A stretch of 12,824 nucleotides of DNA from a virus (Duplodnaviria > Heunggongvirae > Uroviricota > Caudoviricetes). The translations under genes were made by a program, and so were the position numbers. Of the stretch, positions 2,085 through 10,272 are shown piece by piece (the first letter of the stretch is position 1; every line of letters starts with the position of its first letter). The notes below the pieces were generated by a model. It searched no databases, was not told the origin of the DNA, and worked only from the letters and a program-made list of their open reading frames with translations. The stretch lies in IMG/VR virus record IMGVR_UViG_2740892209_000012. One strand, written 5' to 3'.

Positions 2085-3371
2085 ATGAATACTGGATATT
2101 CTCCCGAACAAGGGCGGGGCTTCGTTCGTCCTGAAAAACAGAATCTGCAAAATTTTGCCGAAATTATTCCGGTTATTTCCGGCCTTACTGGCGGGAGTGA
2201 AACCAATATTGTTAACGCCAGAGCGTTGCAGATGTTTGATGATAAAAAGGGAGTAAATTTAACTTACACCCCTGACGGCAATCAGAATATGAGCATTATC
2301 TCTGAGTCAGGTTTCTACAAACTAATAAAAACAAAAAGCGCCCCGTTGCCGGAGCGCCTTTGTGAACAATTAACCTACTGCGCAAAAAATGAATCTGAGC
2401 AGTGGGATTATATCAACCATGTGGAGAAGCGCCACAATTGCCGAATAACGGGCAAAACAAAGGCCACCCGCTACAGTGGCCCCTCGACACAAGCTACACG
2501 TTATCCCCAACGCATGAGCATTGCCAACAATGCCACATTTGCGGCTGGTGGGCAATGCAATCAGTCTGGTTCAGTTCGTTGCCATACCTGCAATGAGCGC
2601 TTTTCCCTGTACTCTTTAAGGAATTGCTCAAGGGCAAAAGCACATGGCGCGAATCTTTCTGATTCATGCTCTATCTTTCTGCGCCGTCTTTTCCGTGCCG
2701 GTGATAATGTTTTGGTCAATTCTTTATCGGTCATTGTGTTGTCCTGCATAGCAATGCGCCGTAGTTACTCACACCACGGCGCTGGTGATGGTTACTCCTG
2801 CTCTTTGGCCTTGCGGCGCTGGCGGCGTTTGATTTCGCCGCGCATGGCTGCGTTTATAAACTGTCCCGTGCTTTCGCCTTCTTCTTTCACGTTCTCCATG
2901 CCTTCAATAATTTCATGGGCAATACGTGCAGTTACAGATTGTGATTTTGCATTCTTTGGACCCGTTGCCATGTTTAACCCCTCATGTTTTTGGTGTAAGA
3001 CAATATACACGAAAAAAAAATATTTTGAAGGGTTGGCGTGTAAGACACCATTGTTTTACATTGTGTCTTACACCTTATTGATGAAAGGCACAGAAACGAC
3101 GAAACCCCGCACTGTAGGAGCAGTAACGGGGCTTCTAACCACCAACGATAGCAACAGTATCGAGGTAGCTATGAGAAATCATACCACACACCCGAAAGGG
3201 CGGGACTCGCACAACCTGAATAAATACATCTGGCGTTTTATCGCCCTGAGCACGGCACAACCGCGCGTGATTACCATTGAGGCCACCAGCGAACAGGAAG
3301 CACGCCAGCAATCTCCGGCTGGCTGCGTGATGGTATTTGCTGCCCGTATTCGTCAGGGGGTAGGCTTATGA
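2085..3371 (+). CDS. Questionable 428-codon open frame; probably not one gene. Only the N-terminal ~85 codons look protein-like (BRO-N/antirepressor-like ISESGFYKLI motif)
   Basis: No stop for 1287 nt, but the central part is Cys/Ser/Arg/Leu-rich junk-like translation, runs antisense to a well-supported small minus-strand gene (2792-2971), and reads through an AT-rich operator/promoter region (2993-3080). The 3' end coincides with the Icd-like ORF starting at 3171. Confidence 0.2.
   Translation: MNTGYSPEQGRGFVRPEKQNLQNFAEIIPVISGLTGGSETNIVNARALQMFDDKKGVNLTYTPDGNQNMSIISESGFYKLIKTKSAPLPERLCEQLTYCAKNESEQWDYINHVEKRHNCRITGKTKATRYSGPSTQATRYPQRMSIANNATFAAGGQCNQSGSVRCHTCNERFSLYSLRNCSRAKAHGANLSDSCSIFLRRLFRAGDNVLVNSLSVIVLSCIAMRRSYSHHGAGDGYSCSLALRRWRRLISPRMAAFINCPVLSPSSFTFSMPSIISWAIRAVTDCDFAFFGPVAMFNPSCFWCKTIYTKKKYFEGLACKTPLFYIVSYTLLMKGTETTKPRTVGAVTGLLTTNDSNSIEVAMRNHTTHPKGRDSHNLNKYIWRFIALSTAQPRVITIEATSEQEARQQSPAGCVMVFAARIRQGVGL
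2324..2357 (-). terminator. Candidate intrinsic terminator for leftward transcription
   Basis: Stem GCGCCCCG (2338-2345) / CGGAGCGC (2350-2357), loop TTGC; on the minus strand it is followed by TTTTTGTTTTTATT (complement of 2324-2337). Confidence 0.35.
2792..2971 (-). CDS. Small basic hypothetical protein (59 aa), candidate autoregulated regulator
   Basis: Minus-strand ATG at 2971 preceded by GAGGGG Shine-Dalgarno (6-nt spacing); protein-like K/E-rich composition (MATGPKNAKSQSVTARIAHEIIEG...KRRQRRKAKEQE); promoter-like -35 TTCAAA / -10 TATATT upstream with a GTGTAAGACA operator-like repeat overlapping the -10/start region. Confidence 0.5.
   Translation of the reverse strand: MATGPKNAKSQSVTARIAHEIIEGMENVKEEGESTGQFINAAMRGEIKRRQRRKAKEQE
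2993..3073. promoter_or_regulatory. Divergent promoter/operator region with three GTGTAAGACA half-sites
   Basis: GTGTAAGACA at 2993-3002; perfect 11-bp inverted repeat GTGTAAGACAC (3038-3048) / GTGTCTTACAC (3063-3073) with a 14-bp spacer; lies between the minus-strand small gene and the plus-strand Icd-like ORF; -35-like TTTACA at 3055-3060 on the plus strand. Confidence 0.55.
3171..3371 (+). CDS. Icd-like small protein (host cell division inhibitor-like family seen in P1/P4-type immunity regions)
   Basis: ATG 3171 preceded by GAGG (5-nt spacing); 66 aa; the YIWRFIALSTAQPRVITIEATSEQEARQQSPAGCVMVFAARIR pattern resembles recalled Icd-like proteins; stop overlaps the next start (ATGA at 3368-3371). 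Confidence 0.45.
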   Translation: MRNHTTHPKGRDSHNLNKYIWRFIALSTAQPRVITIEATSEQEARQQSPAGCVMVFAARIRQGVGL

Positions 3372-3598
3372 GCCAGGAAATCACACTACAACAGGCAGCA
3401 GAACGCGCCCACCAAATCGAAGTTATTTGCGCACTGGCAGAGGATTACCCTAGCATGATGACCGACAGCGAATCAGGGGCAATCATCGGCTTACTTAAAC
3501 GCCTTAGCGGTGAGGTCTGCGTATTCCTGAGCGATGAACAGGAAAGAAGAACGCTTATTTCTAACGAAAAAAAATGCGGAGGGGTACATGTGCAATAA
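3368..3598 (+). CDS. Hypothetical protein (76 aa)
   Basis: ATG 3368 with GGGGG Shine-Dalgarno; ATGA overlap with the upstream ORF; overlaps the next ORF start by 11 nt. Confidence 0.55.
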   Translation: MSQEITLQQAAERAHQIEVICALAEDYPSMMTDSESGAIIGLLKRLSGEVCVFLSDEQERRTLISNEKKCGGVHVQ

Positions 3599-4043: not shown

Positions 4044-4343
4044 ATGAAACTTAAATATTCTGGCTTAACTGCCAGTGGCAAAACTCGCACTAAATTCATG
4101 CGCGGTGATATTTACCGCGACCAGTACGGCGGCACGGTAATGATTAAGGGCGTGGAGGAACGGCGCGTAACCTACCGTCGTGAAGGCTACGAATATGATT
4201 GCGTGATGCCTGTTTATCAGTTCGATCGTGATTTTTCTCTGGTGCAGGCCGTACCGCGTAACGTGCCCACCAGCAGGGAGAAAGCACGCGCCAATATTCA
4301 GGAAATAAAAAAGATGCTTAACGTATTCAGGGGTAAGAAATGA
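4044..4343 (+). CDS. Hypothetical basic protein (99 aa), translationally coupled to the primase gene
   Basis: ATG 4044 with GGAGA Shine-Dalgarno; stop TGA 4341-4343 overlaps the primase ATG 4340 (ATGA). Confidence 0.65.
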   Translation: MKLKYSGLTASGKTRTKFMRGDIYRDQYGGTVMIKGVEERRVTYRREGYEYDCVMPVYQFDRDFSLVQAVPRNVPTSREKARANIQEIKKMLNVFRGKK

Positions 4344-6088
4344 AACTGGCACCGAACGTAAAAAAACAACCACGCGGAATAAAACACAAAGACACAGAGG
4401 TAATTATTTTCGCGGGTAGTGATGCGTGGTCACATGCAAAACAGTGGCAGGAGCAGGACGGCCCCGCATCCGGCGATAATGTGCCGCCTGTGTGGCTTGG
4501 GCCAAATCAGCTTGCCGAACTTGATGCGCTGAAAATTGTTCCGGATGGGAAAAAGCGCGTAAGGCTGTACCAGGCCGGAGAACTGGATTTGGTGGAGACC
4601 AAAAAGATTGGTCAGAAGCTGGCGGCGGCAGATATTCAGGACGCAAATTTTTACCCCGAAGGAATGCACGTCCAGAAGTGTGAAAACTGGCGGCGCTATC
4701 TGAATGCTGAGCGTGAAAATATTGCCGCAGGGCTTACCATGCCGGAGCAGAAAAATACGCAACTGGCACAAATGGCAGACAGTGAGCGCGCGCAGCTGCT
4801 TGCCGAGCGCTTTGATGGCGTTTGTGTGCATCCTGAAAGTGAAATCGTTCACGTATGGCGCGGCGGGGTATGGTGTCCGGTCAGCACAATGGAGCTGAGC
4901 CGCGAAATGGTGGCGATCTATTCAGAGCACAGGGCCACTTTCAGCAAGCGCGTAATCAATAACGCCGTGGAAGCGTTAAAAGTTATTGCCGAACCAATGG
5001 GCGAGCCGTCCGGCTATTTGCTGCCGTTCGCCAATGGTGCGCTTGACCTGAAAACGGGGGAATTTTCCCCGCACACGCCGGAGAACTGGATCACCACGCA
5101 CAACGGCATTGAGTACACGCCACCAGCACCAGGGGAGAACATCCGCGATAACGCGCCAAACTTTCATAAATGGCTTAAGCACGCAGCCGGAAAAGACCCG
5201 CGCAAGATGATGCGTATATGTGCCGCGCTGTACATGATTATGGCGAACCGGTACGACTGGCAGATGTTTATTGAGGCCACCGGAGACGGCGGGAGCGGTA
5301 AAAGTACATTCACACACATAGCCAGCCTTCTGGCAGGGAAACAGAACACGGTAAGCGCTGAAATGACATCGCTTGATGATGCTGGTGGACGTGCGCAGGT
5401 TGTCGGGAGTCGTCTTATCGTCCTGGCTGACCAGCCGAAATATACAGGCGAAGGAACGGGCATCAAGAAAATCACGGGCGGTGACCCCGTGGAAATTAAC
5501 CCGAAATACGAAAAGCGTTTCACGGCTGTAATCAGGGCGGTGGTGCTGGCGACCAACAATAACCCGATGATATTCACCGAACGGGCCGGAGGTGTGGCAC
5601 GTCGTCGCGTGATTTTCCGTTTCGACAATATCGTCAGTGAGGCCGAAAAAGACAGGGAGCTACCGGAAAAGATCGCGGCTGAAATCCCTGTCATTATCCG
5701 CCGATTGCTGGCGAACTTTACCGACCCTGAGAAGGCACGGGCTTTACTACTGGAACAGCGTGACGGTGATGAAGCACTGGCAATAAAGCAACAGACGGAT
5801 CCGGTTATTGAGTTTTGCCAGTTCCTGAATTTTCTGGAGGAAGCGCGCGGCCTGATGATGGGGGGCGGTGGCGATTCAGTGAAGTACACGACCAGGAACA
5901 GCCTTTACCGCGTCTATCTGGCGTTTATGGCATACGCAGGCAGGAGCAAACCGCTAAACGTAAATGACTTTGGAAAGGCTATGAAGCCTGCCGCAAAAGT
6001 TTACGGACATGAATATATTACGCGGAAAGTTAAGGGGGTAACGCAGACTAACGCAATAACAACAGACGAGTGCGACGCGTTTTTATAA
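4340..6088 (+). CDS. Primase/replication initiator with D5_N-like and SF3-helicase P-loop domains (P4 alpha C-terminal type; PICI pri-rep-like)
   Basis: 582-aa ORF; FANGALDLKTGEF motif (D5_N-like), Walker A GDGGSGKST, Walker B-like RLIVLADQ; immediately followed by an iteron array. Confidence 0.9.
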   Translation: MKLAPNVKKQPRGIKHKDTEVIIFAGSDAWSHAKQWQEQDGPASGDNVPPVWLGPNQLAELDALKIVPDGKKRVRLYQAGELDLVETKKIGQKLAAADIQDANFYPEGMHVQKCENWRRYLNAERENIAAGLTMPEQKNTQLAQMADSERAQLLAERFDGVCVHPESEIVHVWRGGVWCPVSTMELSREMVAIYSEHRATFSKRVINNAVEALKVIAEPMGEPSGYLLPFANGALDLKTGEFSPHTPENWITTHNGIEYTPPAPGENIRDNAPNFHKWLKHAAGKDPRKMMRICAALYMIMANRYDWQMFIEATGDGGSGKSTFTHIASLLAGKQNTVSAEMTSLDDAGGRAQVVGSRLIVLADQPKYTGEGTGIKKITGGDPVEINPKYEKRFTAVIRAVVLATNNNPMIFTERAGGVARRRVIFRFDNIVSEAEKDRELPEKIAAEIPVIIRRLLANFTDPEKARALLLEQRDGDEALAIKQQTDPVIEFCQFLNFLEEARGLMMGGGGDSVKYTTRNSLYRVYLAFMAYAGRSKPLNVNDFGKAMKPAAKVYGHEYITRKVKGVTQTNAITTDECDAFL

Positions 6089-7488: not shown

Positions 7489-7695
7489 ATGGCTGAAGAG
7501 AAAAAAGGCGGTGTTTCGGTGTACATAAGCCCCGAAATCGTGGAGGTGCTCAAGCAGCGCCACAAAAAAAACTATGAGGCTGGCGTGGCGGCTGGACTGG
7601 ATCCGCTGATGACGCCGGAGCCGTCGATAGGTTCACTTGTACGCTCTTATTTACTTGCGGCGCTTGGGATGCATAAAAATTATGGGGGTGAATAA
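7489..7695 (+). CDS. Small hypothetical protein (68 aa), possibly ribbon-helix-helix-like, first gene of the capsid operon
   Basis: ATG 7489 with AGAGGA upstream; GVSVYISPEIVEVLKQ resembles an RHH beta-strand/helix start; stop overlaps the MCP start (TAATG). Confidence 0.55.
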   Translation: MAEEKKGGVSVYISPEIVEVLKQRHKKNYEAGVAAGLDPLMTPEPSIGSLVRSYLLAALGMHKNYGGE

Positions 7696-8750
7696 TGGCA
7701 GGCAAAGCAACGGCACTTAACACTAACCAGCTTTTCATGTACCTGAATCGCGGGGATATTGCGGATTTTAAATTCAGCCCTCTGTTTACTACGCTGTTTT
7801 TCCCGAACGTGGCGACATTCAGCACGCAAAACATCATGCTGGATACCCTGGACATTGAAGAAGTCACCATGTCGGCGTTTTGTTCGCCTATGGTGGGTAG
7901 CCAGGTTCAGCGCGATAAAGGGTACGAAACCAGCACGATTAAACCTGGCTACATGAAGCCAAAGCACGAAATCGATCCAACGAAAACCATCATGCGCATG
8001 GCTGGAGAAGATCCGGCACAGCTTAACGACCCTACCTATCGCCGTATGCGCCTGATTACTGGCAATATGCGCCGCCAGATAAACGCCATAAAAGCGCGCG
8101 TGGAATGGCTGGCGGTAAATGCGGTAACGACCGGAAAAAACATCATTGAGGGCGAAGGCATAGAGCGCTATGAAATCGACTGGAAGATACCGGAAAAAAA
8201 CATCATAGAGCAGGCCGACGGGAAAAAATGGTCAGAGCAGGACAAAGAAACCCACGATCCAATCTATGATATCGAACTATACGCCGATCAGGCTGGTTGC
8301 CCCGCAAACGTCATGATTATGGGCGCTGAGGTATGGCGAACGTTACGCAGCTTTAAAAAATTCCGTGAGCTGTACGATCTTTCCCGTGGTTCAGAATCCG
8401 CCGCCGAACTGGCCTGTAAAAACCTGGGCGAAGTGGTGAGCTTTAAAGGCTATCTTGGTGATCTGGCCCTTATCGTCTATTCCGGCAAATACACTGACAG
8501 CGATGGTACCGAAAAATATTTCCTTGAGCCTGATTTGCTGGTCCTGGGCAACACCAACAATAAAGGGCTGGTGGCCTATGGTGCGATAATGGATCAGGAA
8601 GCGGTAAGAACGGGCGCAACACAAAACATGTTTTACCCGAAAAACTGGATTGAGGACGGCGATCCGGCGATTGAGTACGTGCAGACGCACAGCGCACCGC
8701 AGCCGGTTCCGGCAGATATTCGCAAATTTGTTACCGTCAAAATTGGTTAA
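7695..8750 (+). CDS. Major capsid protein, lambda gpE-like
   Basis: 351 aa; multiple blocks align with recalled lambda E (FKFSPLF..LFF, PGYMKPKHE, EDPAQLNDPTYRRMR, WSEQDK..HDP, RSFK, LVLGNT..GL..YG, YPKNW...GDPA, SAP). Confidence 0.9.
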   Translation: MAGKATALNTNQLFMYLNRGDIADFKFSPLFTTLFFPNVATFSTQNIMLDTLDIEEVTMSAFCSPMVGSQVQRDKGYETSTIKPGYMKPKHEIDPTKTIMRMAGEDPAQLNDPTYRRMRLITGNMRRQINAIKARVEWLAVNAVTTGKNIIEGEGIERYEIDWKIPEKNIIEQADGKKWSEQDKETHDPIYDIELYADQAGCPANVMIMGAEVWRTLRSFKKFRELYDLSRGSESAAELACKNLGEVVSFKGYLGDLALIVYSGKYTDSDGTEKYFLEPDLLVLGNTNNKGLVAYGAIMDQEAVRTGATQNMFYPKNWIEDGDPAIEYVQTHSAPQPVPADIRKFVTVKIG

Positions 8751-8761
8751 CGGGGGATTCT

Positions 8762-9097
8762 ATGGACACTCCATACATTGAGTTATTTGCAGGCAGTCAG
8801 CAGGTCGCCACGACGCTGGTACATTTTGCCGCTGATGCTGGCGTTATTCAGGAATTTACCCCGCTGATGCTGGCGGACAATGGCGAGTTTAAGCCGTGGG
8901 ATGGTAAGGAATCTGGCAAGGCTGTTTATCTGACCTCGTACCCTGTGGACACGTCAAAGCAGAAATCAGCACAGTGTTACAAGACGGGGATATTCAATAT
9001 TGCCGCCGTTAACTGGCCTGAGAGCGTCGACACCGATGCGAAAAAATGCGCCGCCTTTGCGGGTTCCGGCGTATCCGTTCAGCCGCTGGCCCGATAA
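8762..9097 (+). CDS. Head decoration protein, lambda gpD-like
   Basis: 111 aa; C-terminal YKTGIFNIAAVNWPESVDTDAKKCAAFAGSGVSVQ resembles lambda D ([34 protein letters not shown]); GGGGGA Shine-Dalgarno; lies downstream of the E-like gene (order reversed relative to lambda). Confidence 0.8.
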   Translation: MDTPYIELFAGSQQVATTLVHFAADAGVIQEFTPLMLADNGEFKPWDGKESGKAVYLTSYPVDTSKQKSAQCYKTGIFNIAAVNWPESVDTDAKKCAAFAGSGVSVQPLAR

Positions 9098-9729: not shown

Positions 9730-10272
9730 ATGAAATCGCACCTGATGAACAAAAAAAACATGGCGAAAAGCTGCCGTGTAAGTGCGACAGCGTTCGACAA
9801 GTGGGGAGTGACTCCCGTTGAACGTAAAGGCCGTGAGGCGTTTTACGATGTTGCCAGCGTGATAGACAATAGGGTTAACAATGCAATTAGCCAGCTTACA
9901 AACGACAAAGGCGATATTGATGATGATGAACTCTTACGAGTCAGGATCAGATTACTGACAGCACAGGCGGAGGCGCAGGAACTTAAAAACGAGCGCGATC
10001 GCGGTGACGTGATTGATACTGAGTTTTGCCTGTACGCGCTTTCAAAGCTGGCGAGTCAGATTTCATCAATCATGGACAGCCTCCCGCTTACTATGCAAAG
10101 GAGCTTCCCACAGATTACCCCCGCCATGCTGGATAGGCTTAAAAGGGAAGTGGTTAAAGCCTGTAATGCCAGTGCCAGAGTTGCCGACAACCTCCCACAG
10201 ATACTGGCTGATTACTTGAAAGAAACAACCGGAAACGTACCGGAAAAGTTGCTACAGAAGAAAGGCGAGTAA
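9730..10272 (+). CDS. Terminase small subunit, lambda Nu1-like
   Basis: 180 aa; LTAQAEAQELKNERDRGDVIDTEFCLYALSKLASQISSIMDSLPLTMQRSFPQ aligns with recalled lambda Nu1 (LTRAQADAQELKNARDSAEVVETAFCTFVLSRIAGEIASILDGLPLSVQRRFPE); the N-terminal NKK... region matches the Nu1 N-terminus; start may be ATG 9730 or ATG 9745. Confidence 0.85.
   Translation: MKSHLMNKKNMAKSCRVSATAFDKWGVTPVERKGREAFYDVASVIDNRVNNAISQLTNDKGDIDDDELLRVRIRLLTAQAEAQELKNERDRGDVIDTEFCLYALSKLASQISSIMDSLPLTMQRSFPQITPAMLDRLKREVVKACNASARVADNLPQILADYLKETTGNVPEKLLQKKGE

Follow-up and report, generated by a model that had tools for sequence, protein, structure and literature searches.

We analysed a stretch of 12,824 nucleotides from the IMG/VR virus record IMGVR_UViG_2740892209_000012 (the whole of it is referred to here as the window) and identified it as a phage-inducible chromosomal island (PICI) of the EcCICFT073 type, inserted between roxA and phoQ. 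Two divergent genes of the island and the DNA between them are described here. The leftward gene belongs to the ylcI/ynfO family (2792-2971 on the minus strand, stop included), starts with the ATG at 2971, ends with the stop codon at 2792-2794 and encodes 59 aa; a 72-aa version with a GTG start was dropped, as the ATG at 2971 is common to every family member. The rightward gene encodes an Icd-like protein of 66 aa (3171-3371, plus strand; NF033153, 69.9 bits against a cutoff of 25). On the map of open reading frames (ORFs) it opens a run of overlapping or abutting genes, with four small ORFs and a DUF4222 gene, which closes with the primase gene at 4340-6088; its stop codon overlaps the next start (ATGA, 3368-3371). 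A rightward operon headed by an Icd-like ORF had been proposed in the original prediction, made by a model from the letters alone, and the run through primase agrees with it. A listed 428-aa ORF (2085-3371) was rejected as a mechanical artefact that crosses ylcI on the other strand. We consider the region to be probably the regulatory (immunity) switch of the island, composed of a repressor, its operators and an antisense RNA. All of the evidence is computational, from comparison and prediction.

The 12.8-kb window contains exactly three copies of the sequence GTGTAAGACA, at 2993-3002 and 3038-3047 on the plus strand and at 3064-3073 on the minus strand. The expectation from 200 dinucleotide-preserving shuffles was 0.01, none of the shuffles (0/200) reached three copies, and allowing one mismatch returned just the same three positions in the window. 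Thus, the three repeat copies noticed in the original prediction were borne out (3 found, 0.01 expected), and so was its perfect 11-bp inverted repeat with a 14-bp spacer: the arms at 3038-3048 and 3063-3073 are perfectly complementary over 11 bp, with 14 nt between them. In the same way, 2992-3002 is perfectly complementary to 3064-3074.

The three copies lie over two predicted divergent promoters, and we refer to the sites as candidate operators O1, O2 and O3. The predicted ylcI promoter, P_L (3002-3029, minus strand), is sigma-70-like, with a -35 TTCAAA at 3029-3024, a 16-nt spacer and a -10 TATATT at 3007-3002 which ends on the first base of the GTGTAAGACA copy at 2993-3002, and the Shine-Dalgarno of ylcI is GAGGGG at 2978-2983. 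The leftward gene was therefore rightly described at the outset as having a Shine-Dalgarno and promoter-like hexamers, and its product matches YlcI/YnfO with 64.8 bits. O1 (2991-3005, core GTGTAAGACA at 2993-3002) immediately follows the leftward -10 and covers the point at which ylcI transcription is expected to begin, which would fit the autoregulation that had been suggested from a half-site in this position. The promoter of the Icd-like operon, P_R (3033-3062, plus strand), was assigned by position homology; it has a -35 TTGGCG at 3033-3038, an 18-nt spacer and a -10 TACATT at 3057-3062, with an A/T-rich tract (3011-3029) upstream. O2 (3036-3050, GTGTAAGACAC at 3038-3048) lies within the P_R spacer and shares its first base with the -35 hexamer, and O3 (3061-3075, GTGTCTTACAC at 3063-3073), inverted with respect to O2, abuts the P_R -10 and covers the expected start.

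One genome per species was scanned, which gave 77 loci from about 30 genera of Enterobacterales, 74 of them usable for architecture; these were stacked by their distance from the ylcI start codon. Three GTG-N5-CAC sites were found at fixed positions in the related loci, with O1, O2 and O3 at 22, 67, and 89-92 or 102 nt, respectively, and often with longer palindromic flanks. Nearly all of the 74 loci have a site equivalent to O1 at this distance of 22 nt, with a core that is specific to the locus. The common order is a site past the leftward -10, the A/T-rich tract, the rightward -35, the second site, the -10 and the third site. The second site begins on the last base of the rightward -35, while the third overlaps or closely follows the rightward -10, its orientation being inverted or direct depending on the locus. 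For P_L, about 55 of the 74 loci have a -10 that reads TATACT and 5 more have TATAAT, and most related loci have no clear -35. In the P_R register, 61/74 loci have a TTGA-type -35 (TTGACG, TTGAAG, TTGAGG and similar), placed 62-67 nt from the start codon of ylcI, and in 68/74 it is followed by TAnnnT after 16-18 nt. In most of the loci, an Icd-like gene comes first among the rightward ORFs. At the level of sequence, what would be expected of a PICI master repressor, namely a gene divergent from the replication operon with sites over the promoters, was thus found across the 74 loci. In EcCICFT073 itself, P_R reads TTGACG-18-TATAGT, with 10/12 consensus matches, and is the sole sigma-70 match of the region. 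The P_R of the window (3033-3062) is clearly weaker than this copy (locus L080, 6715-6744) and than those of most relatives, and the island of the window may have a lower activity, or a greater need for activation.

The comparison supports the view that the repeats behave as operators of the small leftward protein. Among 61 distinct combinations of protein and operator, 31 operator types were counted. Within a locus the three sites agree to 0-2 bases, whereas between loci the N5 cores are unrelated; the promoter hexamers and their spacings are common to the loci and the N5 core is not. Since separated sites remain alike and yet change together, neutral divergence would not produce such a pattern. 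The operator type also goes with the predicted DNA-reading strand of YlcI. SQS(V/I)T(A/V)R pairs with GTGTAAGACAC, SQMTT(V/I)R with GTGTATTTCAC, SKKLEAR with GTGGCTGACAC, SQQLNAR with GTGCGATTCAC, SQ(A/S)LK(A/S)R with GTGG(G/A)CCACAC and SLQ(V/L)SVR with GTGGTGTTCAC. The operator type determines residue 14 in 100% and residue 12 in 98%, and a partial Mantel test in which the rest of the protein was controlled gave r = 0.26 (p = 0.0002). The Mantel and mutual-information tests were significant, and weakly discriminating. The co-variation of residues 12 and 14 with the core lends indirect support to a homodimer whose strands would read the major groove.

Comparison with individual islands revealed natural swaps of the same cassette. 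EcCICFT073 (strain CFT073; NC_004431.1, 1377930-1389000) occupies the same site and has the same gene order as the window, and its 'YlcI/YnfO family protein' (WP_000190587.1, annotated YlcI/YnfO in RefSeq) is likewise divergent from its 'host cell division inhibitor Icd-like protein'; the small gene is unnamed there and its locus tag was added late. The flanks of the two islands at this att site are 100% identical, and only the cassette 2834-3136 differs, which holds ylcI codons 1-46, the promoters, the operators and the hairpins hp1 and hp2 (see below). The operators are GTGTAAGACAC in the window and GTGGGCCACAC in EcCICFT073, and the identities are 100% for AlpA, 97% for the Icd-like protein and 73% for YlcI. 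As AlpA is identical and the Icd-like protein nearly so while the operators differ, neither is the specificity factor. On a different backbone, with a different integrase and at a tRNA-Pro site, the ylcI island of Nissle 1917 encodes a 101-aa YlcI with a reading strand similar to that of the window (SQSLTARI) and has sites of the GTGTAAG type. In an O145 island (NZ_CP035772.1, roxA site), ylcI is replaced by an unannotated 57-aa Arc-like gene (MSTPLEKRSPPYQMRLPEDF...; locus L082, 3250-3423, minus strand), and two ATGGTAATTACC palindromes are placed, with respect to TTGACA and the -10, as the operators are in the ylcI islands. Judged from its sequence, the O145 locus is an analogous module with a different predicted repressor. 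RefSeq places an 'Icd-like' pseudogene on the opposite strand, across this Arc-like gene.

YlcI itself is predicted to be a ribbon-helix-helix (RHH) DNA binder and a repressor. The 59-aa protein belongs to the NCBIfam family YlcI/YnfO (NF041551; 64.8 bits against a cutoff of 30, E 5.2e-18). Residues of about 10-17 (SQSVTARI) form the predicted DNA-reading strand, which is followed by a helix at 19-28, a G32-E33-S34 turn and a second helix at 35-58; the AlphaFold2 monomer model (pLDDT 88) has the same strand-helix-helix layout, that of the RHH fold of about 45 residues. In an alignment of 41 members, S10 and R16 are invariant around a variable stretch, the helix and the G-E-S turn are conserved (E33 and S34 invariant, G32 in at least 90% of the members) and the second helix ends in the basic tail GEIKRRQR, and this is the pattern of RHH repressors. 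With hhalign, YlcI aligned to Arc in the expected register (E 0.0037) and to Mnt with E 0.14. On the other hand, the YlcI of the window had no match in Pfam, among the 41 members only one matched RHH_1 (E 0.0093), one RHH_5 and five CB_ParB_C, all of them under the cutoffs, and searches with Foldseek and against PDB sequences were uninformative. The RHH fold is thus well supported and yet rests on prediction. No match to YlcI was found by tblastn in 50,697 phage genomes, so this clade appears to be confined to satellites and islands. The K-12 protein YnfO from the Qin prophage (locus L081, 4757-4990), which adjoins nohA, has an RHH-like sequence (RNIRFPNQMIEQINIALEQKGSGNFSAWVIEACRRRL), and a different 13-bp inverted repeat lies upstream of its gene, with no GTG-N5-CAC array. 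As this context differs, the K-12 namesakes are uninformative for the module described here.

The leader of the Icd-like operon contains two hairpins which covary across 72-73 aligned loci, namely hp2 (3101-3135), with a 10-bp outer and a 4-bp inner stem, and hp3 (3146-3162), with a 5-bp stem. The CCCCG...CGGGG hairpin pointed out in the original prediction is present, as 3105-3109 pairs with 3128-3132 inside the stem-loop 3101-3135. The c4/CI-type RNA suggested for 3081-3170 did not hold up: no C4 or IsrK match was found at the gathering score in the whole window and none at E<=10 in 2700-3500, no match to either reached the gathering score in 23 related loci, nothing else from Rfam turned up in this region of the window or of those loci, and the structure favours the opposite strand, while C4 and IsrK lie upstream of icd on its own strand and are cut out of the operon transcript. 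On the minus strand, standard pairs are formed in 97.2% of the cells and 16/19 pairs are changed on both sides; none of 500 shuffles reached the observed pairing values, and partners that were slid paired in just 35-46%. Read on the plus strand, the same pairs are formed in 87.7%, with almost no G-U. The departures from Watson-Crick pairing are A.C/C.A in 273 cases and G.T in 4, and since A.C/C.A departures wobble only in a minus-strand RNA, the structure fits the minus strand. The consensus folding energy by RNAalifold was -32.1 kcal/mol on the minus and -9.1 kcal/mol on the plus strand, and the window sequence alone folded with -35.9 kcal/mol (z -5.0) and -23.1 kcal/mol (z -2.1), respectively. 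Moreover, the 12 nt past the minus-strand form of hp2 (hp2') are T-rich on the minus strand only (5.5 T per 12 nt, compared with 2.2). As the structure appears to be selected on the minus strand, the candidate is a cis-antisense transcript and not a sense RNA processed from the leader.

The predicted cis-antisense RNA (3090-3172, minus strand) would be about 80 nt long, with a putative start at about 3170-3172 and a putative end at about 3092, and would be made up of hp3' (3162-3146), the linker UUGGUGGUUA, hp2' (3135-3101) and a U-rich tail (3100-3090). By its position, it is complementary to the icd-like Shine-Dalgarno (3162-3165) and to the first bases of the start codon. In many relatives this Shine-Dalgarno lies within the hp3 loop, which would permit a loop-loop contact between message and antisense RNA. 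A candidate promoter was identified at 3186-3178 (minus strand), where the extended -10 TGGTATGAT, with TATGAT at 3183-3178, falls in icd-like codons 3-6. The minus-strand TAnnnT is kept at its three fixed positions in 72/72, 71/72 and 73/73 loci, at a fixed distance of 15-16 nt upstream of hp3'. Its -11 base is a third-codon-position T in 71/72 loci, in codons for 7 amino acids, which indicates a constraint on the nucleotide rather than on the protein. The RNA motif was also detected in the O145 island that lacks ylcI (62 bits). Taken together, these features make a discrete antisense regulator on the minus strand probable.

Two further elements of the leader were noticed. The palindrome hp1 (3073-3088, CCTT...AAGG) is weak in the window and reads CACCTTGA-N-TCAAGGTG in many relatives; in several others (L043, L071-L073 and L076-L078) its position is taken by CACCTTATCCACAGGTG, containing the perfect DnaA box TTATCCACA, and hp1 showed no strand bias in folding energy or G-U content. 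The linker between hp2 and hp3 (3136-3145; columns 79-91 of alignment A3) is nearly invariant across loci whose stems have diverged, reading UUG(G)UGGUUAGA on the minus and TCTAACCAC(C)AA on the plus strand. Many icd-like genes have a similar TCTAACCAAAC or CATACCCAAAC once more at codons 5-9, which could serve as another site of pairing or be bound by a protein.

From these elements we propose the following mechanism. YlcI dimers would bind the three sites of 11-15 bp, (A/G)GTG-N5-CAC(C/T). At O1, over the start of its own promoter, YlcI would exert negative autoregulation, and at O2 and O3 it would occlude P_R and keep the operon from the Icd-like gene to primase silent. That YlcI binds O1-O3 and represses both promoters is likely. 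The N5 core and the reading strand would form matched pairs which vary from island to island, as immunity types do among temperate phages. In addition, a constitutive RNA of about 80 nt would be transcribed from the putative -10 inside the icd-like start, end at the GC-rich hairpin with its U-rich tail, pair with the icd-like ribosome-binding site and block translation, the genes behind being affected through coupling or polarity. Such an effect on the genes behind the Icd-like gene is probable, as the ORFs overlap (ATGA, 3368-3371). That this module is the master switch of the island is a serious possibility, for which we would put the chances at somewhat less than even. We only tentatively extend it to the wider proposal that YlcI is the missing master repressor of Gram-negative PICIs, EcCICFT073 included, that its dozens of matched repressor/operator specificities define satellite immunity groups, that it works together with the cis-antisense RNA, and that helper phages inactivate or bypass YlcI, with AlpA acting downstream or in parallel.

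Several points weigh against the switch proposed here. Linkage partly confounds the co-variation of operator and protein, since the whole cassette is passed on together, and the rest of YlcI also correlates with the operator type; that three separated sites change in concert, and that natural swaps occur, are stronger arguments than the Mantel and mutual-information tests. The P_R of the window has 8/12 consensus matches and was missed by the promoter scan. Induction of EcCICFT073 requires AlpA, whose over-expression is sufficient (PMC6092414), so a repressor is not needed for the known data. On the side of the RNA, the candidate promoter has no recognisable -35, and the U tract after hp2' is interrupted and was not called by the terminator scan. 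The AlpA data and the weak P_R of the window would suit a peripheral YlcI, which would autoregulate and damp basal expression while AlpA alone decides induction, for example by read-through from alpA; ylcI is situated on the opposite strand in the interval from alpA to the operon and could therefore be crossed by transcription driven from alpA. We regard this as unlikely, if worth keeping in mind, because P_R is near consensus in most loci and is bracketed by two operators, which is hard to explain unless it needs silencing, and because about 30 genera have kept the module, and another island has an analogous Arc-like module in its stead. The switch proposed here neither contradicts nor explains the published facts on AlpA, including that helper phages switch alpA on (PMC6092414; PMC11773190); it may be speculated that AlpA-driven transcription which meets ylcI head-on could link both controls. 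A much less probable reading, to which we give hardly any weight, is that the sites are bound by AlpA, by the Icd-like protein or by a host protein, and that YlcI does something else, such as serving as an antitoxin. AlpA is a DNA-binding regulator encoded nearby and many solved RHH relatives are antitoxins, but AlpA and the Icd-like protein are 100% and 97% identical across islands with unrelated operator cores, for which both were rejected as the site-specific binder, and only the N-terminal part of YlcI falls in the divergent cassette. A toxin-antitoxin pair was likewise rejected: about half of the loci have no same-strand ORF of at least 40 aa past ylcI, none of those present is conserved in the 77 loci, and the lack of a conserved partner gene makes this reading unlikely.

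Two other explanations concern the leader. It could encode a sense immunity RNA of the c4/CI type, processed from the rightward transcript and acting on the icd-like message, as the icd-like genes of P1 follow c4, C4 and isrK were reported from Rfam in some Gram-negative PICIs (PMC10111431) and the leader does hold conserved hairpins. The missing C4 and IsrK matches in the window and the 23 related loci, together with the strand differences in pairing, in departures and in consensus folding energy (about -32 and -9 kcal/mol), make this very improbable. Alternatively, the minus-strand structure could be the 5' leader of a longer ylcI transcript that begins within the icd-like gene, with an establishment-type promoter and hp2' as attenuator or stabiliser, or it could be no more than a terminator which shields ylcI and P_L against transcription coming leftward. 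The position of ylcI directly downstream on the same strand, the lack of a clear P_L -35 in most loci and the interrupted U tract would fit such a role. It is rather improbable given that the tail is T-rich on the minus strand only, that the conserved -10 and hp3' keep a spacing of 15-16 nt and that the conserved -10 of P_L adjoins O1.

The immI region of phage P22 encodes the RHH repressors Mnt and Arc and has the divergent promoters Pant and Pmnt and the sar antisense RNA. It appears to be the closest analogue of the present module in logic. In both, a small RHH repressor (predicted here) is divergent from the operon that it controls, with the operator over the promoters and autoregulation, and a short antisense RNA (also predicted here) is complementary to a ribosome-binding region within the controlled operon. 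The two differ in that their sequences are not detectably related apart from the fold (hhalign E 0.0037 for Arc and 0.14 for Mnt), three separate 11-bp sites with an asymmetric core take the place of one operator, and the operon begins with an Icd-like gene and carries replication genes and no antirepressor, in an element which is a satellite and not a phage. Set against a small cis-antisense RNA with its own promoter and intrinsic terminator, such as P22 sar or lambda OOP, the candidate RNA shows a conserved TAnnnT with synonymous-site constraint, strand-specific covarying hairpins, a T-rich tail and, by its position, complementarity to the ribosome-binding site; its -35 is not recognisable and its U tract is interrupted. 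With the P1/P7 immI (c4-icd-ant) and P4 CI systems the module shares an Icd-like first gene as the predicted target of an RNA regulator and the same position in the Bro/immunity zone, here that of a satellite. In contrast to the P1 and P4 RNAs, which are processed from the sense strand, the RNA predicted here would come from the opposite strand with its own candidate promoter, would be paired with a protein repressor, and has no match to the C4/isrK models. By position and logic, and in its presumed role, the module can also be likened to Stl/Rpr, the master repressors of Gram-positive PICIs (the Staphylococcus aureus pathogenicity islands, SaPIs; PMC6092414), where the regulator is divergent from the excision/replication operon and control lies in the intergenic space. 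YlcI differs from these in its 59 aa and predicted RHH fold, and Gram-negative PICIs also use the activator AlpA. Finally, the sites resemble omega heptads in being short, non-palindromic and direct or inverted, with the predicted fold shared, but the omega arrays are contiguous, whereas the sites here are 11-15 bp, have palindromic GTG/CAC flanks, lie 22-45 bp apart and stand in another genetic context.

The statement of the original prediction that Gram-negative PICIs have no clear repressor agrees with the literature, in which the differing induction of Gram-positive and Gram-negative islands was termed a mystery (PMC6092414). A survey of PICIs reported Bro-network proteins and C4/isrK in this zone of some Gram-negative PICIs, and no protein repressor (PMC10111431). 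Our searches of the openly accessible literature returned no functional study of YlcI/YnfO/DUF3950 and no description of a YlcI/YnfO function, an EcCICFT073 repressor or an Icd-linked small RNA. The module is present in EcCICFT073, the model island of PMC6092414 itself. If YlcI represses the replication operon, the question of induction becomes testable with a 59-aa protein and 80 bp of DNA. Given such repression, the many matched pairs would explain how several related islands could coexist in one cell without cross-talk; small orthogonal repressors could be drawn from them, and the uncharacterised YlcI/YnfO family would gain a function. Were YlcI the master repressor, and inactivated or bypassed by helper phages, the islands would be derepressed much as in staphylococci, with AlpA placed downstream of this step or in parallel to it. 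As a structured motif the antisense RNA would be new, since Rfam 15 does not contain it. A 1.2-kb query that spans the module matched, over part of its length, 1758 of 5426 complete E. coli genomes (about one third), and the ylcI family extends across Enterobacterales.

The remainder of the window is that of an island. Leftward of the module are the integrase gene (228-1478), alpA (1844-2032) and a truncated BRO-N gene (2085-2450) with a weak Bro-N match. The stretch that follows the latter (2543-2784) is 97-98% identical in many O157/O145 genomes, where the counterpart is annotated as an Icd-like or hypothetical pseudogene. A 62-aa ORF (2561-2749, minus strand) follows ylcI on its strand after a gap of 43 nt; it had no family match, and CFT073 has a shorter version of it under the annotation hypothetical (WP_000130015.1). 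Ten nt past the ylcI stop, an inverted repeat (2756-2782, minus strand; 10-nt arms, 90% complementary, 7 nt between them) is possibly a weak ylcI terminator with a poor U tract. Distal to primase are genes for SSB, a lambda-E-like capsid protein, a decoration protein and a terminase-small-like protein, followed by phoQ. The lambda-like major capsid gene is at 7695-8750 and the head-decoration gene at 8762-9097, and a 180-aa ORF (9730-10272) is in the position where one close relative carries an annotated terminase small subunit. These are captured late genes of a helper, of the kind described for such islands (PMC10111431). The Rfam int-alpA motif (RF02996) was not detected at 1400-2100 of the window, even at E<=1; it was found between int and alpA in 7 of the 20 related loci scanned (L007, L009, L029, L043, L045, L058 and L063), where it lies about 2.4-2.9 kb beyond ylcI.

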